Part shown: positions 17,336-41,450 of the stretch, one piece after another | Layout of the letters: each line of letters begins with the position of its first letter | How positions within the stretch are numbered: the stretch's first letter is position 1 | From: Frankiales bacterium | Lineage (GTDB): Bacteria; Actinomycetota; Actinomycetes; Mycobacteriales; SCTD01 | Direction of reading: 5' to 3' | DNA: 64,000 bases | NCBI GenBank assembly: GCA_025465135.1 | Contig: JAODNA010000049.1 | Location: 44,507-108,506 of the forward strand | The notes under the pieces: model-generated | Told to the model about the DNA's origin: nothing | Seen by the model: the letters and a program-made list of their open reading frames with translations, nothing else | Database searches by the model: none | Position numbers and translations under genes: made by a program

Positions 17336-18241
17336 TCAGTCCGCCGGGACGAAACGGATGTCCCCGAACTCTCCGCCCGTCACATGCTTGCCCGTCCACT
17401 GGGCCACGACCACCGCATAGCCGGGGAACTGGTCGTAATGCTCCACGGCCGCGGCCAGCCGAACTCCACGGGCGTCGACCGTGCCGGCCTTCGCGTTCGT
17501 CGCGACGACGCCGCCGATGAGGCTGCATCGAGGTTCCTCGCACGGTGGTCCGAGGACGGGGTCGAGGTGCTCGACCCCGTCAGGGGTCACGATGCTTCCC
17601 GCACAGACATGCTGGAACGGGTCGGGCTGACCCCAGCAGGGAACGGTGCCCGCGCCCGGTCTGGACGCCTCAAGCCAGGTTTGGGAGCCGGCGATGCCCG
17701 TGTCCCGCAGGGATCCCGGAACCGCCTGCGGCAGGTCTGCGTAGGTGAAGTGAAGCAACACGGGGCGACCGTGCTCGCCGACGGCAGAGACGTGGGCAAC
17801 GCCATCCTGGCGCGACGCGCAGCCGTACATCGTGACGGTCGCCGCTGCCGAGCTCGTTTGGTATCGGAACTCGTGCGATCCCCTCGCTGCCTGCGCGGCG
17901 GCTGCGGCCAGACGGGCACACTCCCGCAGGCGCTCGGCGACGTAGGAAGGCGCCGTCGACGCCGTCACGACGGTGATGGTCGCGGCGCCGGACCCCGCGG
18001 AGAGGGTGGATCCGCCGTCGGTCCCGAGCTGTCCATTGGCGCTCCCGCCGCCGCCTGGCAGTCCGGTGATCACGAACGCCGTCGCGGCGGCGGCGAACGC
18101 GCCAGCCGCGCCGAGCGCGGCGCTGCGGCGGCGGTGACGGCGCCTGCCTTCGCGGAACACGGCTGCCGCGGGCGGCATCGCGCCGTGCGAGGCGATCTCC
18201 CGCGCGCCGTCCCGCATCAGTGTGACGAGGGGATCAGTCAT
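17336..18241 (-). CDS. ECF cassette 1 partner P1: single-pass membrane protein (putative anti-sigma/sensor)
   Basis: ATGA overlap with the sigma-1 stop (18238-18241). The N-terminus is MTDPLVTLMRDGAREIA...GRRRHRRRS followed by the TM AALGAAGAFAAAATAFVITGL, then an ectodomain of about 240 aa. No HxxxCxxC motif is present. Confidence 0.8.
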   Translation of the reverse strand: MTDPLVTLMRDGAREIASHGAMPPAAAVFREGRRRHRRRSAALGAAGAFAAAATAFVITGLPGGGGSANGQLGTDGGSTLSAGSGAATITVVTASTAPSYVAERLRECARLAAAAAQAARGSHEFRYQTSSAAATVTMYGCASRQDGVAHVSAVGEHGRPVLLHFTYADLPQAVPGSLRDTGIAGSQTWLEASRPGAGTVPCWGQPDPFQHVCAGSIVTPDGVEHLDPVLGPPCEEPRCSLIGGVVATNAKAGTVDARGVRLAAAVEHYDQFPGYAVVVAQWTGKHVTGGEFGDIRFVPAD

Positions 18242-18774
18242 CGCGCTTGCTCCTGTTCAGCTAAGGACAGCAAGTCGACGAGGCGCGCTCGCGCCCGGAC
18301 AAGCTGCGTCTTGACGGTGTTCTCCGACCTCCCGAGCTCCCGGGCGACCTCAGCAACGGGCAGGTCGAGCAGGTGGTGCAGCACCACCACCTGCCGCTGT
18401 TCACTGGACAGCTGGGCGACCGCTCTGACGACGTCGACGGCGGCCTCCCCCGGAGCAGGCGCCGGCGCCGGTGGGCCTTCTTGCTCAGCGATACGTCGTC
18501 GTACTCGCCGGCGGCGATGGCCGTCGACGGCCAGGTTCATTGCGACGCGCCGCACCCACGCTTCGGGGTTGTCGCACGAACGGACCGTCCGCCAGCGCGC
18601 CGCCGCGCGGGCGAACGCCTCCTGAAGGCAGTCCTGCGCGTCCTGGAGGTCTCCTGTTGCGAGCACGAGCGCGGGCAGCAGGCGTCGGCTGGAGACCCCG
18701 TAGAACTCATCGAAGTCCAACGCCGGTCTGTCCACACCTCGCACACGCGCCAGGTGCTTCCCAGGTTTCTCCAC
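18238..18774 (-). CDS. ECF sigma factor 1 (sigma-70 family, subfamily B)
   Basis: Region 2 is DFDEFY...DAQDCLQEAFARAAARWRTV...NPEAWVRRVAMNLAVD. Region 4 is QRQVVVLHHLLDLPVAEVARELGRSENTVKTQLVRARARL. The true start is possibly GTG 18735 (see the promoter feature). Confidence 0.9.
   Translation of the reverse strand: MEKPGKHLARVRGVDRPALDFDEFYGVSSRRLLPALVLATGDLQDAQDCLQEAFARAAARWRTVRSCDNPEAWVRRVAMNLAVDGHRRRRVRRRIAEQEGPPAPAPAPGEAAVDVVRAVAQLSSEQRQVVVLHHLLDLPVAEVARELGRSENTVKTQLVRARARLVDLLSLAEQEQAR
18743..18767 (-). promoter_or_regulatory. ECF-type promoter candidate for sigma-1 (AACC-N17-GTGT)
   Basis: On the reverse strand, GAAACC (AACC 18767-18764) is followed by 17 nt and GTGT (18746-18743). Seven nt further is the in-frame GTG 18735 (VDRPALDFDEFY...). 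The element lies inside the longest-ORF version of sigma-1, which argues for the shorter, leaderless start. Confidence 0.4.
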
Positions 18775-18859
18775 GTGCCGAATATTCTCGCCTCGACGCT
18801 TGTTCGCCGAGTCAGCCGGCAGTGCCGGGAGCCGCCGTCCGGTGACCTGGCTCCGGACG

Positions 18860-20170
18860 TCAGTGCGTCAAGGGCACCACGATCTGGCTGTTCCCAGTGA
18901 CGCGTACTGCTGTCGATGCGTCGGGCACGAGGGCTGCGTCGCGACCGGCGCGGATCCACGCTCCGGTGCCGATGCGGTACTCCAGGGTGCGCTCGAAGGA
19001 GGCGACGATCCACCCGTCCGAGTCTGGAAGGCGGATCGCGACCGGCAGGGGCGACGCGGGATCGACCTCGCCGCCCGGGACGAATACCTGCCCGGAGCCA
19101 GTTCCGAGGACGGCGTACAGGTGGCTCGGGTCTTCCTCGAGCTGGTGCTCACCGACGACCACCTGTCGGCCGCTCGGCGTCGTGCCGTAGGCGTACCAGA
19201 GGCTGAAGCCCTCCGAGAACGGAGTGCCACCGCTTTGATGCGCGCGCACGGCAGCGTTGAAGCGTGCCCGCAGCTGACCGGCGTCCGCCTGCCAAGATCC
19301 GCCTAGCGGCATCACCGTCTCACCCTGCCCACCGGGGTTGATCCAATCGAGCCGCTTCATTGCTGGCCGCGTGTCCACGACTCCCCCCAACACGCCTCGC
19401 ACGTCGTCCGGGCTGGTGACCGGGAGCAGGCCTAGGTGCACGGAAAGCCCCGGAACTGTTCCCGGTGGAAGCTCGAAGAGCGCGACGCCGTCGTGCTGGG
19501 ACATCGGCGCATAGGTGCGGGATACAGACCCGTCCTTGCCGTACACCCAGCCGAACGAGATGCCGAGCGGCTTGCCGGTATCCAGCGCAGCAACCACGTG
19601 CCGGCCGCTGTCGACGTACCAGGCGATGTCCGACTGGACGCCGGGTGCGGGGTAGGTGTCGGCGACGACTGTGGGCTGGCCGTCCGCCCCGGGACCAACG
19701 AAGCCGAGTAGCTGGTAGACCCCCTCGTGCTCGAGCGAGATGTCGGCGTGGTGGTGCAAGAAGGCGTCCTGACTGACCACAGCTGCCGGCCCCGCGGGGG
19801 TGGTGCCTGCCCAAACGACCTTCGCCTGGCCCCTCATGTCTTCGAAGATGCCTCGCCCAGCGTTGAGCGACGTGGCGTGGCTCGCTCCCCACGCCTGCAG
19901 GACCGAGGCGCGGTACGTGGCATCCGAGGACAGATCGCCGTGGGTCTGACCGTCGAACAGCGCGCCGGCGAACACGACGCGATCCGGGCCCTGACGCGAC
20001 AAGGCGCGCGGTGCTGCGAATCCGACCAGCGCCAGCACGAGTGCTAGGGAGCCAGCCGATGCGCGGCGGCGGCGGATGCGCCGCTGACCGCCGCGGCGCG
20101 TCTGGGTCAGCAGTGCCGGGGACGGCTCGACGTCGGTCGTCGCCAGTTCAAGGAGCTTGGTCAGTTCCAT
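18860..20170 (-). CDS. ECF cassette 2 partner P2: single-pass membrane protein (putative anti-sigma/sensor)
   Basis: ATG 20170 shares 1 nt with the sigma-2 TGA; a TTG at 20176 is an alternative start. The N-terminus is MELTKLLELATTDV...GGQRRIRRRRA followed by the TM SAGSLALVLALVGFAA, then an ectodomain of about 390 aa with no known motif. Confidence 0.8.
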   Translation of the reverse strand: MELTKLLELATTDVEPSPALLTQTRRGGQRRIRRRRASAGSLALVLALVGFAAPRALSRQGPDRVVFAGALFDGQTHGDLSSDATYRASVLQAWGASHATSLNAGRGIFEDMRGQAKVVWAGTTPAGPAAVVSQDAFLHHHADISLEHEGVYQLLGFVGPGADGQPTVVADTYPAPGVQSDIAWYVDSGRHVVAALDTGKPLGISFGWVYGKDGSVSRTYAPMSQHDGVALFELPPGTVPGLSVHLGLLPVTSPDDVRGVLGGVVDTRPAMKRLDWINPGGQGETVMPLGGSWQADAGQLRARFNAAVRAHQSGGTPFSEGFSLWYAYGTTPSGRQVVVGEHQLEEDPSHLYAVLGTGSGQVFVPGGEVDPASPLPVAIRLPDSDGWIVASFERTLEYRIGTGAWIRAGRDAALVPDASTAVRVTGNSQIVVPLTH

Positions 20171-20649
20171 CAGCAAGGTTCCTCAGCAAAGGCGAGTAGT
20201 GCTCGTAGGCGAGGCAGCGCGCGGGCCGTCTGGCTCTTGACCGTGCCGGTGGAGCAACCGAGCGCTGCGGCGGTCTGGTCGATCGACAGGTCATCGAAAA
20301 ACCGGAGGATGACGACGGCTCGCTGACCCGGAGGCAGCGTGGCGAGGGCCGCGAGGACGTCGCGACATGCGGACTCGGGCTCGGTGCCGGCGGCGGCGTC
20401 GCGCTCCCCGAGCGGCACTTCGGCGTGGCGACGGCGGGTGCGCCAGCGATTGGTGGCGGCGTGCGCGATTGCTCGCCTCGCGTACGCGTGCGGGTCGTCG
20501 ATCCGGGACCAGCGTGCGTACATGCGCTCCAGGACGTCTTGCAGGAGGTCCTCTGCGGTACCGCGGTCGCCGACCAGCAGGAAGGCGGTGCGGAGCAAGC
20601 GACGGGACGCTCCTAGGACGAAAACGTCGAAGCCCTCGTCCCTCGCCAC
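20170..20649 (-). CDS. ECF sigma factor 2 (subfamily A, actinobacterial SigE-like type)
   Basis: Region 2 is FDVFVLGASRRLLRTAFLLVGDRGTAEDLLQDVLERMYARWSRIDDPHAYARRA. Region 4 is GQRAVVILRFFDDLSIDQTAAALGCSTGTVKSQTARALPRLR. Confidence 0.9.
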   Translation of the reverse strand: MARDEGFDVFVLGASRRLLRTAFLLVGDRGTAEDLLQDVLERMYARWSRIDDPHAYARRAIAHAATNRWRTRRRHAEVPLGERDAAAGTEPESACRDVLAALATLPPGQRAVVILRFFDDLSIDQTAAALGCSTGTVKSQTARALPRLRALLAFAEEPC

Positions 20650-20680
20650 GTGCCTGCCTCTCTTCGGTCCCGAGGGAAGG

Positions 20681-20704
20681 ACACCGCAGGCGGGCTCCTA
20701 GGTT
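20681..20704 (-). promoter_or_regulatory. ECF-type promoter candidate for sigma-2 (AACC-N16-GTGT)
   Basis: The reverse strand reads GACAACC-taggagcccgcctgcg-GTGTCC. A 31-nt leader containing AAGAGAGG precedes GTG 20649. Confidence 0.4.
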
Positions 20705-20708
20705 GTCA

Positions 20709-20722: not shown

Positions 20723-20867
20723 AGAGACCGGGACACGAGCAGCACGAGCGTGGAGCTGGTGGCGCACGGCCCACGACACGATGAAGCGGACGACTCCTCC
20801 CGACGATGCAAGGGCCGTCCGGTGCGTCCCGCGGGGGCGCCTGCGCCAAATACTTCGATCGAACGAG

Positions 20868-20892
20868 AACCGCTGGGCGCTCGACAGCGTGT
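20868..20892 (+). promoter_or_regulatory. ECF-type promoter candidate for sigma-3 (AACC-N17-GTGT)
   Basis: The sequence is GAGAACC-gctgggcgctcgacagc-GTGTGT. A 42-nt leader precedes GTG 20935. Confidence 0.4.
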
Positions 20893-20934
20893 GTTGGGCG
20901 TGGCTGCTGCACGCGGCGGCCGGAACGGGACGGT

Positions 20935-21411
20935 GTGGACGACTTCGAAAGCTTCTACGTGGGCAGCTATCGGCGGCTGTTCCACGACCTCCTGCTGGTG
21001 ACCGCCGACCAGGCCGATACCGAAGACGTCCTGCAGGACGCCTACACGCGGGCGGCTGTTCGCTGGCGCAGGGTGCGCTCGCTGGACAACCCTGAGGCGT
21101 GGGTACGACGGGTCGCGATCAACCGAAGCCTCGACCTGCACCGGCGGCACAGCCGGCAGCGTCGCGCCTACGCCAGGCTGGCGCCAGCCGTCGAGCACCA
21201 GGACGACCTGAGTCTCGAGGTCCTCGACGCCCTGCGGCAGCTGCTCCCAGAGCTTCGCCAGGTCGTTGTGCTGCACCACCTGCTCGGCGAGACCGTCGAG
21301 TCCATCGCGGCCATCGTCGGTCGCCCGACCGGGACCGTGAAGGGTCAGCTCGTCCGCGGCCGTGCCGCGCTGCACGCTGCCCTGAGTCCCGCTGCCGAGG
21401 AGCTGTCGTGA
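20935..21411 (+). CDS. ECF sigma factor 3 (subfamily B)
   Basis: Lies in ORF 20806..21411. The in-frame GTG 20935 gives VDDFESFYVGSYRRLFHDLLLVTADQADTEDVLQDAYTRAAVRWRRV...NPEAWVRRVAINRSLD. Region 4 is LRQVVVLHHLLGETVESIAAIVGRPTGTVKGQLVRGRAAL. Confidence 0.9.
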   Translation: MDDFESFYVGSYRRLFHDLLLVTADQADTEDVLQDAYTRAAVRWRRVRSLDNPEAWVRRVAINRSLDLHRRHSRQRRAYARLAPAVEHQDDLSLEVLDALRQLLPELRQVVVLHHLLGETVESIAAIVGRPTGTVKGQLVRGRAALHAALSPAAEELS

Positions 21412-22517
21412 CGGACCAGCTGGATTCGCTGCTCGCGCACACCGCCGAGCACCTCAGCAGGGACGTCGTCGCTCCGCCCTCCGGCCCACTGCTCGCGCGG
21501 GCCCGCCGTCGGCGCGTGCTGCGCGTCGCGGTGCCGACGGTGCTGACGCCGCTCCTGGCTGCGACGCTCGCTGTGGCCCTCGGCGCTGGGCCGTCTCTGG
21601 TGCTCCCGGGCCACCACGGCCTGCGGACGGTCTACGCCAGGGGCGGCCCCGAGCTCGGGCACCTGCCGCTGCCCGCCGCCGCGCGTGCACAGCTGGCAGA
21701 GCTCGGCGGCGACCTCGCCGCGGACGCGCCCGCCGACCTGCTGGCTGTCGCGACGACCAAGAACGGCCGAGCCAGGCTGATCGGATTCCAGCGACGCAGC
21801 GGCGCCCGCTGCGTCTTCCAGGACTACGTCGTGCCGTTTCTGAACTCCAACGGCGGTGTGGATTGCGGGCTGAACGGAAGGGAGCCCCTCGACCGGCAGC
21901 CGATCACCGTGGCCGGGAGCGCGGACAGCACCCCGGGCTCCATCAAAGCGGCGCCCATCTCGTTCGGCTCGGCACCTCCGGGCACCCGTACCGTCGAGTT
22001 CACCGCGCCAGCGACTCAGACGGTCCGCGCCGTCGCCCGCGACGGCGGGCCGGCTTACCGCCATCGGTCCTTCTTCCTCACCTCGTGGCCGGTGGGCGTG
22101 AGTTCCACCGTGCGGGCCCTTGATGCGCAGGGTCGCGAGCTGGCTCGCGTCCAGCTGCCGGGACAGGATGCCCGGCAGGTTGCCCGCCAGTGTCAGGACG
22201 TGGCGGGTGTCCTGCTGTCGCACCTGCAGCGCGCAACGCTCGTCGGTACGAAATGGGCGCGGGCGCATCCCCAGTCCGGAGATGCCGCCAGACTCCGCTT
22301 CCTCGACGGTGTCGCCGTCGGTCCGGGCCGACACGTTGCTCGCGAGTCCGAGGCGCTCGCGCGTCTGCAACTCGCGGACGCTGAAGCGTCCCGGCTCGGC
22401 CCAGAGGAGACCTACGAGTACCGGCTCGCAGCTGTGCTCCTCCTTGGTGACGGCAAGGGCTGCTTCACCGGACCGATCCTGTCGACGGCCCGTGAGTTCC
22501 TCAGCAAGACCCGCTGA
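21408..22517 (+). CDS. ECF cassette 3 partner P3: single-pass membrane protein
   Basis: GTGA overlap with the sigma-3 stop (21408-21411). The N-terminus is VTDQLDSLLAHTAEHLS...ARARRRRVLRV followed by the TM AVPTVLTPLLAATLAVALGAG, then an ectodomain of about 310 aa. Confidence 0.8.
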   Translation: MTDQLDSLLAHTAEHLSRDVVAPPSGPLLARARRRRVLRVAVPTVLTPLLAATLAVALGAGPSLVLPGHHGLRTVYARGGPELGHLPLPAAARAQLAELGGDLAADAPADLLAVATTKNGRARLIGFQRRSGARCVFQDYVVPFLNSNGGVDCGLNGREPLDRQPITVAGSADSTPGSIKAAPISFGSAPPGTRTVEFTAPATQTVRAVARDGGPAYRHRSFFLTSWPVGVSSTVRALDAQGRELARVQLPGQDARQVARQCQDVAGVLLSHLQRATLVGTKWARAHPQSGDAARLRFLDGVAVGPGRHVARESEALARLQLADAEASRLGPEETYEYRLAAVLLLGDGKGCFTGPILSTAREFLSKTR

Positions 22518-23502: not shown

Positions 23503-24030
23503 CTACTGGACCTGGAGCTGGAGCATCGCCAGGGCCTGGCCAGCACCGCACGGCGTCGGCGACTCCAGCTCGGTCAGCAGCGCGTAGGACCCACTCGCCA
23601 ACTGGTCCGGACGCGCGACCTTGACGGTGAGCTCGGGCCCGGTTGCAGCCGACTTTCCTGAAGCCAGAGCAAGGTGATCGGCATCCCGTGCGGTCACGCT
23701 GTCGTTCTGAGTGCCCGCCGGGAGGACGAAGACCTGCAACCCCGAGAACGCAGTCACCGAGCCGGCAGCGCTCCGGACCGTGACCGAGAGCCCGTCATGA
23801 CGGCTGATCGTGCTGCTGGCCGGGGACTCATGGATCCCGTCTTCGGCCATGACCCCGTTGACCAGAACCGCGAAGGGCGGCGCCAGACCCGGACCGGTGC
23901 ACGGCGTAGGCGGGCTGGACTCGTGGGTCTGGGCGGCTCCGGCCCGCTCCGCGTCGCCAGCCGTGACCGTGCCGCAACCGGCCGCCAACGACACGCACGC
24001 CAGCAGCCCGAGCAGAGGACGGACGGCCAT
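23503..24030 (-). CDS. Lipoprotein, divergent from sigma-4
   Basis: The N-terminus MAVRPLLGLLACVSLAAGC carries the lipobox LAAGC. Two further Cys residues are present. No known domain. Confidence 0.75.
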   Translation of the reverse strand: MAVRPLLGLLACVSLAAGCGTVTAGDAERAGAAQTHESSPPTPCTGPGLAPPFAVLVNGVMAEDGIHESPASSTISRHDGLSVTVRSAAGSVTAFSGLQVFVLPAGTQNDSVTARDADHLALASGKSAATGPELTVKVARPDQLASGSYALLTELESPTPCGAGQALAMLQLQVQ

Positions 24031-24114: not shown

Positions 24115-24654
24115 GTGGGCATTGACGGGAAGGGCACGAGCGCGGACTTCGATGCGTTCGTGGCCAGCCGCGCGACCGCACTGCTTCGATACGGCGTTCT
24201 GCTGTTCGGCAACCAGGGCGATGCTGAAGACGCGCTCCAGGACGGGCTGGAGAAGACGTGGCGTCGATGGGACCGCCTGTCCGGGGCCGCGCCCGAGGCC
24301 TACGTCCGCCAGTGCCTGTTGAACGCGGCACGAGACTCGGCGAGGCGTCGCCGGGTACGCCTGAACGCCGCTGCCCGCCTCTTCACCAGGCCTCCTGAGT
24401 CCGTGACCACCGCCGTGGATGGCCGGGACGAGTTGCTGCAGGCCCTCGGGGCGTTACCCCCTCGGCAACGCGCAGTGCTGCTCCTGCGCTACTGGCTGGA
24501 CATGGCCGAGGCCGATGTCGCCCGCGAGCTCGGCTGCTCGGTCGGGACGGTGAAGAGCCAGGCAGCTCGCGGGCTAGCCAGGCTGCGCAGCACCGACGCG
24601 CGGCTGCCTGAGGCAACCGCGCGCTCGACATCACGGACCGGAGAGACGGCATGA
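24115..24654 (+). CDS. ECF sigma factor 4 (subfamily A)
   Basis: Region 2 is DFDAFVASRATALLRYGVLLFGNQGDAEDALQDGLEKTWRRWDRL...PEAYVRQCLLNAARD. Region 4 is RQRAVLLLRYWLDMAEADVARELGCSVGTVKSQAARGLARLR. Confidence 0.9.
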   Translation: MGIDGKGTSADFDAFVASRATALLRYGVLLFGNQGDAEDALQDGLEKTWRRWDRLSGAAPEAYVRQCLLNAARDSARRRRVRLNAAARLFTRPPESVTTAVDGRDELLQALGALPPRQRAVLLLRYWLDMAEADVARELGCSVGTVKSQAARGLARLRSTDARLPEATARSTSRTGETA

Positions 24655-25691
24655 CCGACACCGAGCTCATCGCGCGCTTCCGCCAGGCCTGCGAGGACGC
24701 CACCGACGCGGTGGAGGCACCGTCGCTGTTCGTCCCGGCGCGAGCTCGGCGTGCCCGGCGCACCCGGTGGGGAGCGCCGTTGGCGAGTGCGGTTCTCGCC
24801 GGCGGCGCCGCCTTGGGAGCGTTCATGCTCCAGCAGCAGCTCGGTGCGACGGCGCACCGATCTGACGCGACCGTGCAGTTCGCCGGGGTGTGCGACAGCC
24901 CGTACAACGTGCCGGCCCGCCCCGGCCACGTGATCGCGAAGGGGTTCCGGGTCGGCGACATCGTCGTTGCACCCGCCGGCGGCACTCCCGTCCCCTCCGA
25001 GGCGACGGTGCGGGCCCAGCTCCGGAAGGCAGATCTTCCGGTCGGCGCGCAACTGAGGTGGGCCTCGATCATCGAACCCGCCCTGTCCCCCACCGCCACG
25101 GACCACTGGCTCCTGACCAGCTGCGGGCAACCGGGCGCCTTCCTGCGGCCGACAGCCACGGACCCGTCGCCGATGTCTCGGATCTACCAGACCGCCACCT
25201 ACAGCGTCGTCGGTCCGACAGGGCAGCCCGGACAGCCGTTCACGGTCCAGCTGAACCAGCCGCAGTGCCCGCATCGCATCGGCACTGCCGGGGGACCCAG
25301 CAACGGGAAGCCAAGCTCAGCCCGCCTGGTGGACGGGCACGTGACCGCTGGTCTGTTCTGCCGCTACTACTCGGTCCTTCCGGGCCCCGGAAACAAGTAC
25401 CCCGGCACCGAGCACGGTGCCGCTGGGATCCCCCCGGATCTGGCTGCCGCGATGGCCAAGGCGATCAACGCACTTCCACCTGCCAGTGGGGTGGCCATGA
25501 GCTGTCCGAACGACATCGGCGTGACCGACGTCCTGTCCTTCCAGACCTCGAACGGACCGCAGCAGGTCTGGGTCTCGGCCACCGGCTGCAACGTCTTCAA
25601 GAACGGAGCCCGGGTCGCGATCGGGAGTGGGCCGGCGATGGCGACCTACCTCGAGCTCCGGGCTCGCCTCGTCCTGCCTAGCGTCCGGTGA
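24651..25691 (+). CDS. ECF cassette 4 partner P4: single-pass membrane protein
   Basis: ATGA overlap at 24651-24654. The N-terminus is MTDTELIARFRQACEDA...ARARRARRTRW followed by the TM GAPLASAVLAGGAALGAFML, then a Cys-containing ectodomain of about 285 aa. Confidence 0.8.
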   Translation: MTDTELIARFRQACEDATDAVEAPSLFVPARARRARRTRWGAPLASAVLAGGAALGAFMLQQQLGATAHRSDATVQFAGVCDSPYNVPARPGHVIAKGFRVGDIVVAPAGGTPVPSEATVRAQLRKADLPVGAQLRWASIIEPALSPTATDHWLLTSCGQPGAFLRPTATDPSPMSRIYQTATYSVVGPTGQPGQPFTVQLNQPQCPHRIGTAGGPSNGKPSSARLVDGHVTAGLFCRYYSVLPGPGNKYPGTEHGAAGIPPDLAAAMAKAINALPPASGVAMSCPNDIGVTDVLSFQTSNGPQQVWVSATGCNVFKNGARVAIGSGPAMATYLELRARLVLPSVR

Positions 25692-25713: not shown

Positions 25714-27819
25714 CTACAGCGATCGGGTCTGGCGGCGCTCATGGTGGGGGCCGCTGTCGCGGAAGACGATCTCCACGACGGCGAAGTGCCCGTTGCTGTT
25801 GCCGGAGAAGTGGAACGTGGCGGGATAGGAGTGCTTGGTTCCGCTCACGCACTGCGGTGTGCAGTCGTTCTCCGACAGGACCCCCTCCGCCGTCGCCTCG
25901 GTCTGACCCCACGACGTCCACGTCAGGCTCTCGGCGATGCTGCTGCCGTCCGCGCAGGCGAGCGCGACGTACGACGGGCGGATCGGCCGGTCGCTGCAGG
26001 TGGGGTCGAAGGTGGTGGGTTGGCCAGCGGATTGTCGCGTCGTGCTCACCTGGTCCGGCTCCACGGGCGACACCACGATGCGGCTCCCCGGATCGCCGGG
26101 CCCGCAGTAGCCCAGCCGGCTCGGCGTGGCGGGCAAGGGGACCTGCAGGGGGAACGCGCGGCCGGGAAGCGTGACGTCGACGGCCGCCGCGAGCGCCTTG
26201 TCGCCAAGGTCGCAGCGGTACTTGCCGAACGCGACATAGGCAAGGCCCCCGACCGGAACAGTCACTTCCCCAGCCGGGCCGGCGGTGATGGTCTGGCTGC
26301 CGGTGTGCTCGATGGAGAACGCGAGCGGCTTGCCGCGAAGGTCGAGCAGGGTGAGCTCGGGGTAGCCGTCGAGCACGCACGGCCCTGGACCGATGTTGGT
26401 GATGGCGAGCAGGACGCCACTCTCACCGCCGGCTCCGCCCGCGGCCGGGCTGGCGGAGATGGCGAGCTTGGATCGCTCGCAAGGGCCGGGCGAGGGCAGT
26501 GGCGGCGGCGGACGGGTGGAACGGGCAACGGAATAGGCGGTCCACCGGCTCGTTCCGGTGCCCGACCAGACGGCGCCGGCGCCGTCGGCCTGGCCAGGGG
26601 CGACGCCGCGACCGTCCAGGAGGACCTGCACGGGTCCGAAGAAGTCAGAGTTGTCGGTCACCGGCACCCAGGAGTGGCCGCCGTCCGCGGTCGCGGAGAC
26701 CTCGCCGCGCGACGCGCTGACGTAGGCCGTCGAGGCGCTCGACGCGGCGATGGAGGCGGCGTAGCCGCGGTCGGGCAACAGCGCCGCCGGCCGGAAGGGC
26801 TGCCCGGTTCCCGACGACACGAAGACGCGCTTGCGCTGAAGTCCCGCGGACCCCTCTTGCGTGCACAGGACCCACACGGCCCCTGTCTGCGTGGTGCTGA
26901 TGTCGGCGGTGCTGTACGGACCTGCGCCGTCCGGCCCCTGGCACGGTGCGGCCTCGCGGGTCCACGTGCTGCCGTCATCGGCGGAGGTGAAGATCGCGTC
27001 CGGCAGGAGCTGGGCCGCGCCTACCGGCTGGCGGACCGCCACTGCGGCACGCCCTCCTGCCGCCCGCGACACGACGACTGCGCCACCAGCATGCGAGGTG
27101 GGCAACGGGAGGGTGGCGAACGATGCCGGGTCCTGTCCGGCCTTCCCGCCGCGTAGCCCCAGCGCGCAGCCGTCGGCGCCGGGCCGGGCCGGGCAGTCCA
27201 TCGTCGCGATCCAGACCGAGTCGGAGTCAGGAGCGACGTCGAGATCGACGAGCTGACCGGCCAGCTGATCCCGGCTCGTCCAGGTCGCGCCGTCGTCGTT
27301 GGAGTAGGCCAGGCCGTTGCCCCAGACGTAGACGCTGTGCTGACCTGCCACCGAGACGCGACGGACATCGGGTGCGTGAGCGCCCTCGGGAAGAACGCGT
27401 TCAGTACCGGGGTCGAGGGTCCGGCCGCGGTCGGAGGTGAGACGCAGCAGCTGCCGGCAGGGACTGACGTCGGCCAGGCAGGTGCCGACGACGGCGGCTC
27501 CCGTGCCGTCGGGGCGCAGGGCGATCGCGGACACGAACGCTGGGGGTTGCGGCGCCGGAGACGGGGAGTCGGTCGGCTCGCCGGTCGACGTCGCGGCCGG
27601 AACCGGCGCCGCGGTGCGGGCAGCGTTGCGAGTGGCCGCCGTCACTCCCCCAGCCACCGCGATCACGGCGAGCACCGAGGCCGCCGCGGCCAGCGCTGTT
27701 CTGCGCCGGCGCGCGCGCCGGAGCCGACCATCGAGCCAGCTCCCGTCGGTGTGGACCGCGCGGTGGCGTTCGCCCAGATCGGCCAGCAGTGCAGCCAGGC
27801 GACGCTCCTCAGGCGTCAT
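25714..27819 (-). CDS. ECF cassette 5 partner P5: single-pass membrane protein with BNR/Asp-box beta-propeller + DUF4232-like + C-terminal Cys-rich domain
   Basis: It overlaps sigma-5 by 11 nt. The N-terminus is MTPEERRLAALLADLGERH...RRARRRRT followed by a TM. Asp-boxes are SNDDGATW, SADDGSTW and TADGGHSW. The DUF4232-like stretch is CERSKLAISASPAAGGAGGESGVLLAITNIGPGPCVLDGYPELTLLD. Confidence 0.85.
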   Translation of the reverse strand: MTPEERRLAALLADLGERHRAVHTDGSWLDGRLRRARRRRTALAAAASVLAVIAVAGGVTAATRNAARTAAPVPAATSTGEPTDSPSPAPQPPAFVSAIALRPDGTGAAVVGTCLADVSPCRQLLRLTSDRGRTLDPGTERVLPEGAHAPDVRRVSVAGQHSVYVWGNGLAYSNDDGATWTSRDQLAGQLVDLDVAPDSDSVWIATMDCPARPGADGCALGLRGGKAGQDPASFATLPLPTSHAGGAVVVSRAAGGRAAVAVRQPVGAAQLLPDAIFTSADDGSTWTREAAPCQGPDGAGPYSTADISTTQTGAVWVLCTQEGSAGLQRKRVFVSSGTGQPFRPAALLPDRGYAASIAASSASTAYVSASRGEVSATADGGHSWVPVTDNSDFFGPVQVLLDGRGVAPGQADGAGAVWSGTGTSRWTAYSVARSTRPPPPLPSPGPCERSKLAISASPAAGGAGGESGVLLAITNIGPGPCVLDGYPELTLLDLRGKPLAFSIEHTGSQTITAGPAGEVTVPVGGLAYVAFGKYRCDLGDKALAAAVDVTLPGRAFPLQVPLPATPSRLGYCGPGDPGSRIVVSPVEPDQVSTTRQSAGQPTTFDPTCSDRPIRPSYVALACADGSSIAESLTWTSWGQTEATAEGVLSENDCTPQCVSGTKHSYPATFHFSGNSNGHFAVVEIVFRDSGPHHERRQTRSL

Positions 27820-29904: not shown

Positions 29905-29929
29905 ACACCCCGAAGCGGGTGCCAAGGTT
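29905..29929 (-). promoter_or_regulatory. ECF-type promoter candidate for sigma-6 (GGGAACC-N17-GTGT)
   Basis: The reverse strand reads GGGAACC-ttggcacccgcttcggg-GTGTTACCTAG, followed directly by GTG 29897 (7 nt after GTGT, so leaderless-like). Confidence 0.45.
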
Positions 29930-31135: not shown

Positions 31136-31684
31136 TTAGAGGCTCAGGTCTGCTTGGACCAGGGAGAAGATCGCAAGGTCGACCCGCCCGGCATGGATGT
31201 AGCCGGCGCGCCGTGCCACCCCTTCGCGGAGGAATCCGGCCTTCTCGGCCACGCGCAGCGAGGCTGCGTTCCCCGTAGCGATCCGCAGCTCCACCCGGTG
31301 CAAGCCGAGGTCTGTCAACGCCCACCTCGCCATCGCCTGTACGGCCTCCGTGACGAACCCCTGCGACCTTGCCCACGGGCACGCCAGATAGCCGATCTCC
31401 GTCACCCCCGCTGCCCATTCGGTTCGCTTGAAGTCGATGGTCCCGGCAAGCTGACCGGCCGCGTCGATGGCTCGCACGAGGCCGAAGCCGGAACGCTGCC
31501 GGTCAGGAGCGACCTGGCCGATCCATCGCAGAGCGTCGCCCTCCGAATAGGGGCGAGGGAGAGGGAGCCACGTTTGCGTCAGATCGTCGGAACCCGCAGC
31601 CGCGAGGGCAGCAGCATCGGTCATCTCCAACGGCCGAAGCGTGAGCCGGGCCGTTGTCAGGGTCGTCTCAGGAAACGTGCTCAC
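31136..31684 (-). CDS. GNAT family N-acetyltransferase (RimJ/RimL-like)
   Basis: The N-terminus is TTARLTLRPLEMTDAAAL. The core is EIGYLACPWARSQGFVTEAVQAMARWAL...LHRVELRIATGNAASLRVAEKAGFLREG. Confidence 0.85.
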   Translation of the reverse strand: MSTFPETTLTTARLTLRPLEMTDAAALAAAGSDDLTQTWLPLPRPYSEGDALRWIGQVAPDRQRSGFGLVRAIDAAGQLAGTIDFKRTEWAAGVTEIGYLACPWARSQGFVTEAVQAMARWALTDLGLHRVELRIATGNAASLRVAEKAGFLREGVARRAGYIHAGRVDLAIFSLVQADLSL

Positions 31685-33932: not shown

Positions 33933-34463
33933 TCAGCTGTCGGGAAGTCGTGACCATATCTCGGTGTCCTCGCGTAGATCCTGCTTGAAGTGCCTCGACC
34001 GGAGCACACCCTCACGCACATAACCGCATCGCTGCGCGACCCGCTGCGACGCGGCATTGTCGACGCTGATGTAGAGCTCGATCCTCAACGCTCCCAAGAC
34101 GGAGAGCGCCCAGTCTGTGAGTTGGCTCAGGGCGGCCGTGGCGACACCCTGACCGCGCGCCTCAGGCGCGACGAGGTAACCGAGTTCGACGGTCCTTGTT
34201 GAAGAGTTGATATCAGGAGCGAGAGCGACGCCCAGGAACTCGTCGCACTCGCCCGCGATCGCAAACGCCTCGCGCGTTCCGTCGACTCGTCCGCCTTGGT
34301 AACTCTGTAGCCACGCGCGCTCGAAGCCATCCGGCACGGGCACCGGAACCCTCGAGAAGCGCAGGACGTGCTCATCGGCCAGCATCGCCCGCAACGAGGC
34401 CAGGTGCTGTTCGCCGAACAACACCAGCCCGAGCTGCGGCCGTTGCGGCGGTGCCGTTGTCAT
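33933..34463 (-). CDS. GNAT family N-acetyltransferase
   Basis: Lies in ORF 33933..34529, starting at ATG 34463. The core is ELGYLVAPEARGQGVATAALSQLTDWAL...ALRIELYISVDNAASQRVAQRCGYVREG. Confidence 0.85.
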   Translation of the reverse strand: MTTAPPQRPQLGLVLFGEQHLASLRAMLADEHVLRFSRVPVPVPDGFERAWLQSYQGGRVDGTREAFAIAGECDEFLGVALAPDINSSTRTVELGYLVAPEARGQGVATAALSQLTDWALSVLGALRIELYISVDNAASQRVAQRCGYVREGVLRSRHFKQDLREDTEIWSRLPDS

Positions 34464-34844
34464 GACGCGAGTATGCCGAAAGAGTCGGGGTCCGCTGGGA
34501 GGCGAGTCTCCAACTGGATCATCGGGCACGGCACCTACTTGCGGCGGAGCGAGCCGAGCCTGCGGCGAGTCGCGTCACCAGCGCCACGCGCCATCCATCG
34601 CCGACAGGGATGCCTCTGGGACTGGGCGGGCTTGGGAAGCCACGTTGTTTCGGCAGGCGAAGCAGTCATCCATCAACCGATGGCTAAGCCGGGTGCCGTC
34701 GTGAACCGCCACTTCGTTCGCCGTGGCCAGGGGTGCCATGCGTGGCAGATCGGTGGTTCTCCGTGCCACGACGCGGTGAGGGTGTCATGAAGCGCACAGA
34801 GCCGCGCCCCGGATGGCGCCTCGGGATGACCATGGAGGGAAAGC

Positions 34845-35103: not shown

Positions 35104-35610
35104 TCAGCAGCGGGTGGCCGCCTTGTCCACTTCTTGGCTGCCCGCCTGTAGGTGCACCTGAAGTCGTTGTCGGGCCCGGTGGATGCGTACTCGCACAGTG
35201 CCCGGGCTCCTGCCGAGGACAGTCGCGATCTCCGCGGGCGTGAGCTGGTCGTAGACCATGAGCTCGATGAGCTCACGGTCGCTCGGCGACAGCTTGCTGA
35301 GTAGTTCGCTGACGTGCAGGTCGTCGAGCGAAGGCTCGTATTGCTCCACCACCTGCTCTCGTAGGCGTTCAGCGAGGGAGTTCTGCACCTGCTTACCCCG
35401 GCGGTGTGCCGCGAGCACTTTTCGGGCGACCCCGAAGAGCCAGAGGCGTGGGTTGTCGTGGGACACCCCACGGTGCCGCCAGGCCACGACGAAGACGTCA
35501 GACAGCAGATCCGCTGCATCCGCTGGCTGCTGGACTCGTCGCAAGAAGTAGCGCAGCACATCATCTCGGTTAGCTTCGTACAGCTGGGCGAACGGCTCGT
35601 CGTCGGTCAC
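35104..35610 (-). CDS. ECF sigma factor 7 (distinct subfamily)
   Basis: Lies in ORF 35104..35820. GTG 35610 forms a GTGA overlap with the stop of P7. Region 2 is FAQLYEANRDDVLRYFLRRV...AADLLSDVFVVAWRHR. Region 4 is SDRELIELMVYDQLTPAEIATVLGRSPGTVRVRIHRARQRL. Confidence 0.85.
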   Translation of the reverse strand: MTDDEPFAQLYEANRDDVLRYFLRRVQQPADAADLLSDVFVVAWRHRGVSHDNPRLWLFGVARKVLAAHRRGKQVQNSLAERLREQVVEQYEPSLDDLHVSELLSKLSPSDRELIELMVYDQLTPAEIATVLGRSPGTVRVRIHRARQRLQVHLQAGSQEVDKAATRC

Positions 35611-36266
35611 GAGGCCGGCCACGGCCGGGGGTCGGGGCAGTTGATGTCGACGTATTGCTGCAGCGGCGCGGGGTCGCCCTGCTGGGCTTGTTCGACCAGC
35701 CGGAGGTTGTAGGAGCGCAGGTTGATCCGGCGAGCGAGGTCTGAGTCCGCCAAGCGCCTCATGTGCTCGAGCGCGCCGGGGTCGGTCGTCGACGTCCGCG
35801 CCCACGAGCAGAAGGCCCACGACAGCCCCGAGCCCCGGACGCCGGTGACCTGCATGACGTAGCCGCGACCGCGCAGCTCAGGGGCGGTATCGGCGTCCAT
35901 GCGACGAGGGTCGAGTAGCCCCAGGTACATCTGCGCGGAGTAGCCCGGCGCATAGTCGAAACCCGACGTGTAGCGCAGGGCGACGTCCCGGAAGTCGGGA
36001 GCATTGAGGTCTAGGTATTCGCTCGTGTCGTTCTCGGTCGCGCCCGGCAGGCCGAACAGACCGGTGTGGCTGCCGCCGGTCGCTACCGCTACGCCGCCAA
36101 TGCCCATGACAGCCGCGCTGACCGCGCCGATGGCGACGAAACGACGGCGGCGGCTCGACGCAGGGCGGATCTGCCTCACGGCAGCGAGGAGTCCCTCGTA
36201 GCCCTCCTCGCAGCTCAGCTCGACGGGACTCAGGCGGGCACGGAGCTCGTCCACTACATCGGTCAT
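35607..36266 (-). CDS. ECF cassette 7 partner P7: single-pass membrane protein, encoded UPSTREAM of its sigma
   Basis: The N-terminus is MTDVVDELRARLSPVEL...PASSRRRRF followed by the TM VAIGAVSAAVMGIGGVAVA, then an ectodomain of about 155 aa. Confidence 0.75.
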   Translation of the reverse strand: MTDVVDELRARLSPVELSCEEGYEGLLAAVRQIRPASSRRRRFVAIGAVSAAVMGIGGVAVATGGSHTGLFGLPGATENDTSEYLDLNAPDFRDVALRYTSGFDYAPGYSAQMYLGLLDPRRMDADTAPELRGRGYVMQVTGVRGSGLSWAFCSWARTSTTDPGALEHMRRLADSDLARRINLRSYNLRLVEQAQQGDPAPLQQYVDINCPDPRPWPAS

Positions 36267-37956: not shown

Positions 37957-38043
37957 GGATGCAAGGACGCGGGGCTTGCCAGGTCGGTTCCGTGGGTGGA
38001 ACTACTCAGGTCCGCATGGCCCGGTCGCATCACGATTGCGGAC

Positions 38044-38385: not shown

Positions 38386-38520
38386 CGAAGCGAAGAGCGA
38401 CGTCGCGCGACACAGCTCCTCAGGGCCCAGGAGGGTCCGTGACGGCGGCTAGGCGCGCAGGATGGCGATGCTCTGCGTCAGGACGGACCGTTGACCGCTA
38501 GACGACGGCGCCGGGCCGCT

Positions 38521-38545
38521 CGCGGACACAGCGGTCGTGTCCGCG
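38521..38545 (+). promoter_or_regulatory. Perfect 9-bp inverted repeat (7-nt spacer) at the arr start region
   Basis: CGCGGACAC-agcggtc-GTGTCCGCG. The right arm begins with the longest-ORF GTG (38537). It lies 22 nt upstream of the alternative GTG 38567. Confidence 0.35.
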
Positions 38546-39040: not shown

Positions 39041-39259
39041 GCCACGAGCAGTCCTCTGGCAGCTCGTCAGGGTCGCTTTCGTGCTCCTGTTCGTAGTACA
39101 AGGCTCCATGCCATCAAACGCCATGACTACTTGATGGTCACTTCGATGGCGGTCGGGACTGCTGCCTTGATTTGGTCCGGCGTTCTGTCCGCGAGGTCCA
39201 GGCTCCGCCGCGGGTAGGTGCCTCGCAGCTCCCCCGGCACTCGAGAACGATACGGACGG

Positions 39260-39282
39260 AACCAACCGGCCCTCTGTGGTGT
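39260..39282 (+). promoter_or_regulatory. ECF-type promoter candidate for sigma-8 (GGAACC-N15-GTGT)
   Basis: The sequence is CGGAACC-aaccggccctctgtg-GTGTCTTGATGAG, followed by GTG 39292 (9 nt after GTGT). Confidence 0.45.
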
Positions 39283-39291
39283 CTTGATGAG

Positions 39292-39783
39292 GTGCCGATC
39301 GCCTTCGAGGAGTACGTCGCTGCGCGCTTCCCGGCGCTGCGACGGCTCGCCTATCTGCTGACCGGTGACTGGACCGAGGCAGAGGACCTCGTCCAGGACG
39401 CGCTCGTGCGCTGCGAGCGACGCTGGTCCGGGATCGCCACTGACGACCCGCACGCCTACGTGCGGCGTTCGGTGGTGAACGGTGCTGCGAACTGGCGGCG
39501 ACGCCGACGGATCGAGCTTCCACTCGACGAGGGCGGCGCCGTTGCTGACCACACGCCCGCCACGGATGAGCGTCTGGTCCTGCTGGAGGCACTGCGGCGC
39601 CTGCCTGTCGACCAGCGCCAGGTCCTCGCTCTGCGCTTCTTCGAGCAACTCAGCGAAGCCGAGACCGCCCATGCGCTCGACATCGCGCCGGGCACGGTCA
39701 AGAGCCGTACTTCTCGCGGCTTGGCGGCGCTGCGGGAGGCCGGTCTCACGGCCGGGTCGAAACGGATGGAGATCACGTCATGA
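39292..39783 (+). CDS. ECF sigma factor 8 (subfamily A)
   Basis: Lies in ORF 39172..39783. GTG 39292 gives VPIAFEEYVAARFPALRRLAYLLTGDWTEAEDLVQDALVRCERRWSGI...DPHAYVRRSVVN. Region 4 is DQRQVLALRFFEQLSEAETAHALDIAPGTVKSRTSRGLAALR. Confidence 0.9.
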   Translation: MPIAFEEYVAARFPALRRLAYLLTGDWTEAEDLVQDALVRCERRWSGIATDDPHAYVRRSVVNGAANWRRRRRIELPLDEGGAVADHTPATDERLVLLEALRRLPVDQRQVLALRFFEQLSEAETAHALDIAPGTVKSRTSRGLAALREAGLTAGSKRMEITS

Positions 39784-41450
39784 CCGATCTTGAGCAGCTG
39801 TTCCAGGACTCCGTCGCGCTGGCCGAGCAGGGCCACTCGTCGCCTGGGGATCCTCTCGGGCGGCTGACTGCGGCCCGATCCGCGTACCGGCGTCGTCGAT
39901 GGGGGGCGGTCGCAATCCCGGCCGCTGCCGCGGCAGTCGCCGCAGTCATGATCCTGCCGTCGGTGCTCACCCCAGGCGGTGGTGGCGGAGCCGTCGTCGC
40001 GGCCGGCGACGGCCCGACCCCGTCGGCGTTCGTGGCGCTGGTCGCCGGCCGGGCTGGTCTGTTCAATGCGACTGACGGCACGCGAGTACTGGACTTCGGG
40101 TCGGCTACAGCAGTCTCCACCGACCCGCTCGGGGTGTACGTCGGGGCCGGCGCCGGGTGCTCGTCCGTCCTGCGCTTCTTCCACGCCGGGCAGTCGTCGT
40201 TCCTCGACGGTGAAGGACCTATCGGCGGCCACATGAGTGCGCTGGCCATCTCGCCGGGGGGGCGGACCCTTGCCTACACGCTGGGCCACCGCCCTGACGC
40301 CGAGCCGGGCGTGCCGTGCGGAAGCCCCGACCTGGTACTGCGCGACGGCCCTACCGGTGCAGTGCGCCGGTGGACCGGCGAGGTGGGCAGCGGGGAGATA
40401 TCGCAGCTGTCGTGGTCCGCCGACGGCAAGCACCTCGCCTTCCAGACCAGCGTGTGCTGCGACGCCAGCACCACGCTGCACGTGCTCGCGACAGACGCGG
40501 CTCCAACCCCGGTGACCCAGGTGCCCGCTGCGCTCCACGGGCGGCAGACGTGCCAGTTCACGCTGCCGGTGTACTCGGGCAACCAGCTGCTTGCGGTCCG
40601 TCAGTGCGACGGCGGCGCCGACCTGGTCCGGATCGGGCTCGACGGCGCGGTCAGCCTCGAGCGAAAGCTGCCAGCAGGCAGCCCCATCGCTCTCTCGGCC
40701 GCCGGCGGGGCACTGCTGCTCTCTGAGTACGGCACGCCGGAGACACCGGGCAAGCTCCTACGGCTGGACGCCGACGGCACCGCGACTGTCCTCGGCACTG
40801 GCTTCTCGCAGCCCAGCTGGGCCGTGCCCGGATCGACGCAGGCGTCACCCACGGCGTCCGCCGCGGCAACGGCCGCGCCGCAGGAAAGCGCTGCGGCAAC
40901 GAGCTGCGTCTACCGCCCTTCACCGAAGGACGCGGTCGGCCCGGCCGTCGGACTTCCCGCGGCGGAGCCCCGCAACCTACCTGCCAGCGCGACCATCCAC
41001 ACCAGCCGCGGCGACATCACCGTGGACTTCAGGCCGGAGCGCACCCAGGCGCCCTGCACGGTGAACAGCTTTGCGCACCTGGCCACGAGCAAGTTCTACG
41101 ACGGCACCCGCTGCCATCGCCTGACCACCGCGGGCATCTACGTCCTGCAGTGCGGCGACCCGTCCGGCACCGGTAGCGGTGGTCCCGGCTACACGTTCGC
41201 CGACGAGCACCTGCCGGGCACGACGTACCCGACGGGCACGGTGGCGATGGCCAACGCGGGCCCCGACTCGAACGGCAGCCAGTTCTTCCTCGTCTACAAG
41301 ACCAGCCAGCTCGGCCCGGACTACACCGTCTTCGGACACATCACGGCCGGACTCGACGTCCTGACGGGTGTTGCCGCTGGCGGCGCGCTTCCCCCCAACG
41401 ACGGAGCACCGAAGCTGCCGGTTCGGATCGTGAACGTCGCCCTCGGCTGA
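39780..41450 (+). CDS. ECF cassette 8 partner P8: single-pass membrane protein with PD40-like beta-propeller region and C-terminal cyclophilin-type PPIase
   Basis: ATGA overlap at 39780-39783. The N-terminus is MTDLEQLFQDSVALAEQG...SAYRRRRW followed by the TM GAVAIPAAAAAVAAVMILPSV. PD40-like motifs are ISPGGRTLAY and WSADGKHLAF. The cyclophilin stretch is APCTVNSFAHLA..FYDGTRCHR...LQCGDPSGTGSGGPGYTFADE...GTVAMANAGPDSNGSQFFLVY...YTVFGHI. Confidence 0.9.
   Translation: MTDLEQLFQDSVALAEQGHSSPGDPLGRLTAARSAYRRRRWGAVAIPAAAAAVAAVMILPSVLTPGGGGGAVVAAGDGPTPSAFVALVAGRAGLFNATDGTRVLDFGSATAVSTDPLGVYVGAGAGCSSVLRFFHAGQSSFLDGEGPIGGHMSALAISPGGRTLAYTLGHRPDAEPGVPCGSPDLVLRDGPTGAVRRWTGEVGSGEISQLSWSADGKHLAFQTSVCCDASTTLHVLATDAAPTPVTQVPAALHGRQTCQFTLPVYSGNQLLAVRQCDGGADLVRIGLDGAVSLERKLPAGSPIALSAAGGALLLSEYGTPETPGKLLRLDADGTATVLGTGFSQPSWAVPGSTQASPTASAAATAAPQESAAATSCVYRPSPKDAVGPAVGLPAAEPRNLPASATIHTSRGDITVDFRPERTQAPCTVNSFAHLATSKFYDGTRCHRLTTAGIYVLQCGDPSGTGSGGPGYTFADEHLPGTTYPTGTVAMANAGPDSNGSQFFLVYKTSQLGPDYTVFGHITAGLDVLTGVAAGGALPPNDGAPKLPVRIVNVALG

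Follow-up and report, generated by a model that had tools for sequence, protein, structure and literature searches.

The 64-kb stretch of Frankiales DNA analyzed here (contig JAODNA010000049.1; hereafter, the window) contains, within ~24 kb (17336–41450), eight modules in which a gene for a sigma factor of the extracytoplasmic function (ECF) type (S1–S8) adjoins a gene for a membrane-protein partner (P1–P8). Seven of these are modules of the SigE family (TIGR02983; groups ECF38/ECF39), and one comes from another ECF group. We consider it probable that the eight partners are anti-sigma factors that cross the membrane once, from a cytoplasmic N-terminus to an external C-terminus. Seven of them would be of the type that is standard for SigE-family sigmas, and the remaining one, P7, would be a look-alike.

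A short head of common layout in eight partners

The heads of the eight partners have a common layout and no strongly conserved sequence. Measured to the last charged residue ahead of the hydrophobic span, the head is 39 residues in length in P1, P3, and P4, 36 in P2, 40 in P5 and P8, 37 in P6, and 42 in P7, and the membrane span begins at residue 37–43. Five to eight Arg are present in the last 12 residues of each head. The span that follows has 18–36 uncharged residues, and its best 19-residue Kyte-Doolittle mean is 1.59–2.21. These values agree with the initial annotation of this DNA, which had described a short head followed by a membrane helix, and the eight N-termini quoted there are all present exactly as quoted. 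One hydrophobic span with Arg on its N-terminal side fits the positive-inside rule, and a single membrane helix with a cytoplasmic N-terminus is predicted for the partners.

The association of this layout with sigma genes was compared with its background frequency in the 64 kb. Among 257 six-frame open reading frames (ORFs) of at least 100 amino acids, nine match a pattern in which a head of 30–50 amino acids has at least five R/K in 12 residues and is followed by a hydrophobic, uncharged run of 18 residues or more. Seven of the nine are partners and two are unrelated; P4 narrowly misses the hydropathy filter. The association between head and sigma gene is therefore not due to chance.

An alignment of 75 heads defines the anatomy of this element. 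The sequence starts with M, then T, N, or S, and often has D or E next. Helix 1, which is acidic and ~12 residues in length, has conserved hydrophobic residues at positions i, i+4, and i+8 (L-x3-L-x3-A/V) and is followed by a Pro-rich break of 5–8 residues. The second segment has conserved V, A, and I positions within R-R-x-R-A-R-R-I-R-R-R-R-R. An Ala/Val-rich span comes after the Arg run, with a conserved Pro ~20 residues further on. The first half of each head has a net charge of 0 to −4, and the whole head one of +1 to +5. An AlphaFold2 model of the P6 head, for which the alignment consisted of the eight window heads, has a helix at residues 4–16, a break at 17–22, and one continuous helix at 23–58. 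With low to moderate confidence, the head is predicted to form two short helices, the second of which bears the Arg cluster and runs unbroken into the membrane helix. The single helix plus Arg cluster of the initial annotation thus gives way to two helices split by a Pro-rich break. The label "amphipathic" for helix 1 was dropped as unsupported, the hydrophobic moment of most heads being no different from that of shuffled sequence.

The start of the head is partly constrained by gene overlap. A four-base ATGA or GTGA overlap with the sigma stop codon, which had been ascribed to the whole set, occurs in P1, P3, P4, P6, and P8; P2 overlaps its sigma gene by 1 base and P5 by 11 bases, and P7 lacks the arrangement. 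Residue 2 is restricted because the ATGA overlap makes its codon begin with A, and in 62 of 67 heads from outside the window (described below) it is one of T, N, S, K, R, and M. The proposal that the conserved M-T-D is partly forced in this way thus stands for residue 2. It does not extend to residue 3, which is acidic (D/E) in 31 of the 67; this is a real preference, unforced by the overlap.

Conservation of the head was assessed in six orthologue pairs (P1/P0012, P3/P0024, P6/P0018, P8/P0014, P8/P0017, and P8/P0023). Identity in these pairs is 36–83% in helix 1 and the linker, 26–61% in the ectodomain, and 27–64% in the membrane span. Among the eight window partners, pairwise BLASTP gave no match at E≤0.01, heads included, and the ectodomains are unrelated to one another (some with cyclophilin, beta-propeller/BNR, or DUF4232, most of unknown fold). 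A surface that has to fit one particular sigma would be expected to show just this, being conserved in orthologues and divergent in paralogues.

Occurrence of the head across Actinomycetota

The same head layout occurs widely outside the window. One genome per species was scanned with four of the sigmas as seed, an alignment of all eight being too divergent for this use, and 80 SigE-family (TIGR02983) loci were collected. These come from Micromonospora, Streptomyces, Nocardioides, Kribbella, Actinoplanes, Catenulispora, Glycomyces, Lentzea, and many metagenome-assembled genomes (MAGs). At 67 of the 80 loci the next gene encodes a head of this layout, and 52 of these 67 partners have a 4-base overlap with the sigma stop. 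The outside heads have a median length of 41 residues, with 59 of them falling within 34–48 residues and a Micromonospora subgroup at 62–63. All except one (66/67) have five to eight R/K in the last 12 head residues.

A profile made from the eight window heads was also searched against 1.84 billion representative proteins. It gave 81 matches at E≤1e-3, nearly all of them at residues 1–60 of the matched protein, and the three matches that were examined are all encoded directly downstream of an ECF sigma, with an overlap of 4–8 bases. The ectodomains of the relatives are diverse (cyclophilin, DUF4232, BNR/sortilin propellers, META, PASTA, and PD40), and most have no Pfam domain. The short head is thus a family-wide feature and the ordinary partner type of sigmas of the ECF38/ECF39 clade, rather than a peculiarity of the window. 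Casas-Pastor 2021 describes one single-pass anti-sigma type as common to ECF222/51/38/39. The module is not a new find, given the 67 outside loci and this earlier notice of a shared type; the head type is already known bioinformatically, and one member has been functionally validated.

Similarity to experimentally tested anti-sigma factors

Rhodius et al. 2013 (PMC3817407) include three cognate anti-sigmas from these groups, AS38_1322 (SCO3612), AS38_1442 (Krad_3401), and AS39_1438 (SCO4995). The sequences of all three contain a helix, a Pro, a helix with an Arg cluster, and a membrane helix. Staron 2009 is reportedly another source for the cognate anti-sigmas of ECF38 and ECF39.

A profile built solely from the 67 outside heads was tested on 40 anti-sigmas of about 30 ECF groups. 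The three proteins above took the top three places, with scores of 29.0 bits for AS38_1442, 21.4 for AS39_1438, and 18.4 for AS38_1322. They align with the profile from end to end, whereas the other anti-sigmas align with it only over the Arg-plus-membrane part. Whole-sequence scores are distorted by composition correction; the test was made on trimmed heads, with the part preceding the Arg cluster shuffled as control. Relative to the shuffled versions, the full profile gave z values of 1.9–7.0 for the window heads, P5 being the weakest, and of 4.7 and 6.8 for the AS38 heads. The corresponding sigmas, ECF38_1322 and ECF38_1442, exceed the cut-off (141.55 bits) of TIGR02983, the NCBIfam model named "SigE family RNA polymerase sigma factor".

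AS38_1322 represses ECF38_1322 54-fold in E. coli and represses 35 other sigmas at most 11-fold (PMC3817407). In the absence of its partner, ECF38_1322 is active on its own promoter in E. coli (381 vs 2.2 units; PMC3817407). Later work in synthetic biology has taken up ECF38 and its anti-sigma as an orthogonal pair. The strong repression by a protein of the same head type weakens the suggestion, made in the initial annotation, that the partners might not be anti-sigmas at all.

Searches for a known anti-sigma domain

None of the eight heads has a Pfam match at E≤1, whether to zf-HC2, RskA, RsdA_SigD_bd, or other anti-sigma families. Searches of the heads with NCBIfam gave only sub-threshold matches over the Arg-plus-membrane region, to the CU044_5270 family and to the "antisigma" model NF052375. 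The latter, which has a cut-off of 100 bits, reached an E of 0.2 on P4 and a best E of 4e-5 among 61 relatives. A profile of 56 heads compared with all PDB chain sequences at E≤10 retrieved 17 chains, which are Arg-rich or hydrophobic noise and include no anti-sigma, and the 56 heads searched individually against Pfam gave nothing consistent. Assignment to a known anti-sigma domain in Pfam, NCBIfam, or PDB was rejected, as only noise was recovered (Arg-rich viral proteins, Tat-signal models, and DUF3040).

Regular-expression searches found no HxxxCxxC motif anywhere in the eight proteins and no Hx3Cx2C zinc motif in the 67 outside heads; the eight window heads combined contain two Cys. By size, profile match, and zinc motif, the heads do not appear to be class I anti-sigma domains, and the observation in the initial annotation that neither a zinc motif nor a class I domain is visible was thus borne out. 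The head type has no Pfam model and no solved structure, in keeping with the earlier description of it as a poorly described module, and a literature search found no structural or mutational study of the ECF38/39 head type. For lack of a Pfam model of the sigma-binding part, the partners are recorded as hypothetical proteins; in the deposited annotation, P8 is recorded as a cyclophilin-type isomerase.

Proposed mechanism and alternative explanations

Each partner gene is translationally coupled to its sigma gene. We propose, after the example of CnrY, that the two short helices of the head would cover the sigma4 and sigma2 surfaces of the cognate sigma and so keep it at the membrane. The Arg cluster would set the N-inside topology through the positive-inside rule and may also belong to the binding helix. 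The variable ectodomain would sense a signal that leads to release of the sigma, probably via regulated proteolysis of the partner, and the freed sigma would transcribe its own operon from AACC-N15-17-GTGT promoters.

Several observations weigh against the assignment of the partners as anti-sigmas of this type. P5 is barely above its shuffled versions (z 1.0–2.1), and no other window head matches the family profile so poorly. Ahead of the Arg cluster, similarity to the AS38/AS39 heads is weak (5–13 bits with a helix-only profile), and the hydrophobic moment of helix 1 is clearly above that of shuffled sequences only for P1. The AlphaFold2 model of the P6 head was built on eight sequences and has a mean predicted local distance difference test score (pLDDT) of 69.7. 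The number of promoter-like motifs in the window is not above chance (5 found vs 2.45 expected). Lastly, AS38_1322 has ~110 extra low-complexity residues ahead of its head, and its repression therefore does not imply that ~40 residues are sufficient.

A bolder proposal, which we put forward only tentatively, is that the head constitutes a fourth structural class of ECF anti-sigma domain, a bipartite motif of ~30 residues composed of an acidic helix, a Pro-rich hinge, and an Arg-rich helix fused directly to the membrane helix, and binding its sigma unlike classes I–III. Were this so, the Arg-rich juxtamembrane helix might dock on an acidic sigma surface at the membrane, and the head would be a common adaptor for the diverse actinobacterial sensor ectodomains that occur in the head-profile matches.

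It is unlikely that the partners bind sigma and yet act chiefly as positive or dual regulators that are required for sigma activity. A very small head offers little surface with which to block both sigma domains, and the data from the window do not separate inhibition from activation. FecR-type proteins, for example, are reported to be needed for the activity of their sigma. A dual activator-inhibitor role is documented for RskA (PMC7509140). However, AS38_1322, the sole tested member of this head type, represses its sigma strongly and specifically, and ECF38_1322 requires no partner for activity on its promoter in E. coli.

We regard it as distinctly improbable that the head is a cut-down or diverged class I domain, retaining equivalents of helices 1 and 4, or that a second, separately encoded cytoplasmic protein completes it to a normal four-helix domain. 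In class I, helix 1 binds sigma4 and helix 4 binds sigma2 (PMC7406223), and a two-helix remnant could act alike. Arg clusters also precede the membrane helix in actinobacterial class I proteins, as in AS40_3198/RsdA (QRRRARR) and AS17_1691 (HRRRRRTR). Yet no Pfam, NCBIfam, or PDB similarity to a class I domain was found, even at E up to 1–10, and for class I members of the tested library the match with the head profile is confined to the Arg-plus-membrane part. As for a second protein, no extra conserved small gene was seen beside the 67 outside pairs, though no systematic search was made.

The least probable explanation, and a very improbable one, is that the head, Arg cluster, and Ala/Gly-rich stretch serve for export, as a twin-arginine translocation (Tat) signal peptide or as a signal anchor; the partners would then be no more than sigma-regulon products that are secreted or anchored, with a head that binds no sigma. 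Arg runs do abut a moderately hydrophobic Ala/Gly/Val stretch, and there are sub-threshold matches to UCR_Fe-S_N (P7, E=0.16; 3 of 56 heads, best E=0.009) and to MelC1 (P5, E=0.85), but the ~25 residues before the Arg run are as conserved between orthologues as the ectodomain and, unlike a signal-peptide n-region, more conserved than the hydrophobic stretch in five of the six orthologue pairs; RR is present, yet the consensus beyond the Arg run, rich in A/V/G, has no F-L-K as in the Tat motif S/T-R-R-x-F-L-K; the uncharged span, with its length of 18–36 residues and conserved Pro ~20 residues in, fits a membrane helix; and in E. coli a cytoplasmic sigma is inhibited by AS38_1322, a protein of this head type.

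Single-pass membrane anti-sigmas thus remain our preferred assignment for the partners. The finding in the window is mainly explained by existing knowledge. Among the ECF sigmas of Actinomycetota, those of the SigE family rank with the most numerous. If a head of ~40 residues does confer partner specificity, no membrane-tethered anti-sigma module in wide use would be smaller. With a structure or a validated head profile, many "hypothetical" sensors could be annotated, and compact sigma/anti-sigma parts that do not interfere with one another could be had for synthetic biology, a use to which the ECF38 pair has already been put.

P7 and S7

The initial annotation had all eight partners following a sigma gene, and this is so for only seven. 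These seven follow a sigma of the SigE clade, with overlaps of 1–11 bases, whereas P7 lies upstream of S7, a sigma of another ECF group. P7 (35607–36266, minus strand; 219 amino acids) has its head (amino acids 1–42) and membrane span encoded at 36075–36266, and S7 (35104–35610, minus strand) is located downstream, with its GTG start overlapping the stop codon of P7. The best NCBIfam match of S7 is PRK09645 at 83 bits, against only 68 bits for TIGR02983, and its best match in the Rhodius sigma library, a weak one, is ECF17. No ORF was found after S7, and tblastn with all eight sigmas found no sigma upstream of P7. The possibility of a degraded sigma gene at that position was rejected, as there was no tblastn match and third-position GC in this region lacks the bias of coding sequence.

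Relatives of S7 from metagenomes (34–44% identical) mostly have a downstream partner with a head of 45–88 residues and the motif L-x2-L-x3-(D/N)-P. In a minority, including loci L083 and L086, the membrane partner is upstream, and homologues of the P7 ectodomain are encoded upstream of S7-like sigmas at L086 (E=2e-7) and L083 (E=9e-4). This recurrence indicates that the reversed order is a conserved arrangement of another ECF group. By these comparisons, P7 is a short version of the head of the S7 group and a look-alike of the SigE-family heads. The description of one module in all eight partners is thus true for layout and not for family membership.

Gene models and the sigma/partner cluster

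The G+C content of the window is ~70%. Real genes were told from spurious ORFs by third-position GC, and the eight N-termini were located through exact match. The starts chosen for P1–P8 are the deposited gene starts, the exact proteins being on record in the Frankiales MAG, where the partners are annotated as described above. In a tblastn search with the sigma proteins, the ECF sigma genes of the 64 kb numbered exactly eight.

TIGR02983 is the best NCBIfam model for S1–S6 and S8 (116–174 bits), and S2, S4, S5, and S8 exceed its cut-off. In a sample of the Rhodius sigma library, the best match of these seven sigmas is ECF39. The next-best group is ECF38 for all but S1, for which ECF27 and ECF17 outscore ECF38. 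The other window sigmas are only 28–42% identical to S5. The partners are unrelated outside the head, and the 17336–41450 region is a cluster of old paralogues rather than the result of recent tandem duplication.

The first two modules are on the minus strand. S1 (18238–18774, longest ORF; TIGR02983, 140.8 bits) is followed by P1 (17336–18241; 301 amino acids), the ATGA of which overlaps the S1 stop; the P1 head (amino acids 1–39) and membrane span are encoded at 18059–18241. S2 (20170–20649; 154.5 bits) is followed by P2 (18860–20170; 436 amino acids), with the head (amino acids 1–36) and membrane span at 19997–20170. P2 starts with M-E, and its 1-base overlap with the S2 stop has the sequence TGATG. 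The ectodomain of P2 is 41% identical to that of the partner at a Kribbella locus (L023).

The third and fourth modules are on the plus strand. S3 (20806–21411, longest ORF; 116.3 bits) precedes P3 (21408–22517; 369 amino acids), which has a GTG start, a GTGA overlap with the S3 stop, and its head (amino acids 1–39) and membrane span at 21408–21590. S4 (24115–24654; 163.3 bits) precedes P4 (24651–25691; 346 amino acids), the ATGA of which overlaps the S4 stop and the head (amino acids 1–39) and membrane span of which are encoded at 24651–24833. A probable lipoprotein (23503–24030, minus strand; N-terminus MAVRPLLGLLACVSLAAGCG) is divergently transcribed from S4.

Modules five and six are on the minus strand. 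S5 (27809–28336; 174.3 bits) is followed, with the 11-base overlap, by P5 (25714–27819; 701 amino acids), the head (amino acids 1–40) and membrane span of which are at 27634–27819. The P5 ectodomain, outside the membrane, has a BNR/F510_1955-like glycosyl-hydrolase region and DUF4232. S6 (29376–29897; 120.9 bits) is followed by P6 (28597–29379; 260 amino acids), with an ATGA overlap and with the head (amino acids 1–37) and membrane span at 29203–29379. Two ORFs between sigma modules, at 31136–31684 and 33933–34529 (both minus strand), are GNAT-type acetyltransferase-like by eye.

S8 (39172–39783, longest ORF, plus strand; 162.7 bits) precedes P8 (39780–41450, plus strand; 556 amino acids), the ATGA of which overlaps the S8 stop. 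The deposited S8 protein (P0090) has 163 amino acids and a start downstream of that of the longest ORF. P8 consists of the short head (amino acids 1–40; encoded with the membrane span at 39780–39965), a probable beta-propeller (weak PD40 match), and a C-terminal cyclophilin-type peptidyl-prolyl isomerase domain. Its orthologues P0014 and P0017 keep this architecture, and P0023 (291 amino acids) has the head and isomerase only; orthologues of P1, P3, and P6 (P0012, P0024, and P0018) were also identified. An extracytoplasmic cyclophilin is unusual on a putative anti-sigma factor.

Natural fusions of sigma and partner were found neither among the best 120 homologues of a fused query of S8 and the P8 head nor among the 81 head-profile matches. 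The metagenomic protein P0123 (222 amino acids), which matches S8 at 78% identity with 61% of the query covered, contains sigma-70 region 2/4 domains and a cyclophilin domain (PF00160) and has no head. A deletion across a sigma-partner pair, or an assembly chimera of one, may account for it.

Promoter-like motifs

The motif AACC-N15-17-GTGT has five sites in the window, all at the 5' ends of sigma genes and in the same orientation as these. It is the same motif as in the ECF38 promoter Pecf38_up1322 (CAACC-N15-GTGTC; Rhodius et al.). An AACC-N16-GTGT site (20681–20704, minus strand) begins 55 bases upstream of S2, and an AACC-N17-GTGT site (29905–29929, minus strand) begins 32 bases upstream of S6. 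The other three sites are located at the 5' end of the S1 ORF (18743–18767, minus strand) and within the 5' extensions of the S3 ORF (20868–20892, plus strand) and the S8 ORF (39260–39282, plus strand). As these three lie inside longest ORFs, the true starts of S1, S3, and S8 are probably further downstream, that of S1 beyond 18743–18767 and that of S3 beyond 20892. S4 has a variant, CAACC-N16-CGTTT, and no motif match was seen for S5 or the P7-S7 operon.

Comparison with known systems

The closest counterparts of the window partners are AS38_1322, AS38_1442, and AS39_1438, which likewise adjoin a TIGR02983 sigma and have the same layout of helix, Pro break, Arg helix, and single predicted membrane helix. 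The heads of AS38_1442 (59 residues) and AS39_1438 (48 residues) are longer than the 36–42 residues found in the window, and the AS38 and AS39 ectodomains are unrelated to those of the window partners.

A further resemblance is to AS37_2513 of Burkholderia thailandensis (BTH_I1043, ECF37), which scores highest with the helix-only profile (14.2 bits) and lowers the activity of its sigma 13-fold (PMC3817407). Its head of ~48 residues has a helix, L-P, a second helix, and then a basic cluster that precedes a hydrophobic span. This protein differs in being proteobacterial, in belonging with another sigma group, in having Lys/Arg instead of an Arg run, and in having a small C-terminal part. The resemblance may reflect convergence or a distant relationship. 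RsuA/SigU was considered as a characterized relative and the lead was dropped, the only link found between RsuA and anti-sigmas being a paper on zinc-containing (ZAS) anti-sigmas (PMC3177212).

Class I anti-sigma domains average 101 ± 33 residues, contact sigma through helices 1 and 4, and have Hx3Cx2C in their zinc-binding members (PMC7406223). As with the window partners, the genes of class I proteins (RseA, RsrA, ChrR, RslA, RskA, and RsdA) adjoin those of their sigmas, and actinobacterial members have the Arg cluster; class I proteins are often single-pass with a cytoplasmic N-terminus, as is predicted for the window partners. The window partners differ in having heads of 36–42 residues with two predicted helices, no Hx3Cx2C, and no profile match.

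The class II anti-sigma CnrY of Cupriavidus metallidurans (PDB 4CXF) has a very short cytoplasmic domain of two helices ahead of one membrane helix; the helices embrace the sigma, the first lying against sigma4 and the second against sigma2 (PMC7406223, PMC4598750). As judged from the alignment and, with low to moderate confidence, from the P6 model, the window heads are CnrY-like in having two helices, a cytoplasmic domain of at most ~45 residues, and one membrane helix. Homology to CnrY or NccY was not detected in the window heads when the 56-head profile was compared with PDB chains (E≤10). In addition, CnrY is proteobacterial and signals via a separate sensor, CnrX (PMC4598750), whereas the window partners have large ectodomains of their own. 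We regard CnrY as the best working model for the action of so small a head.

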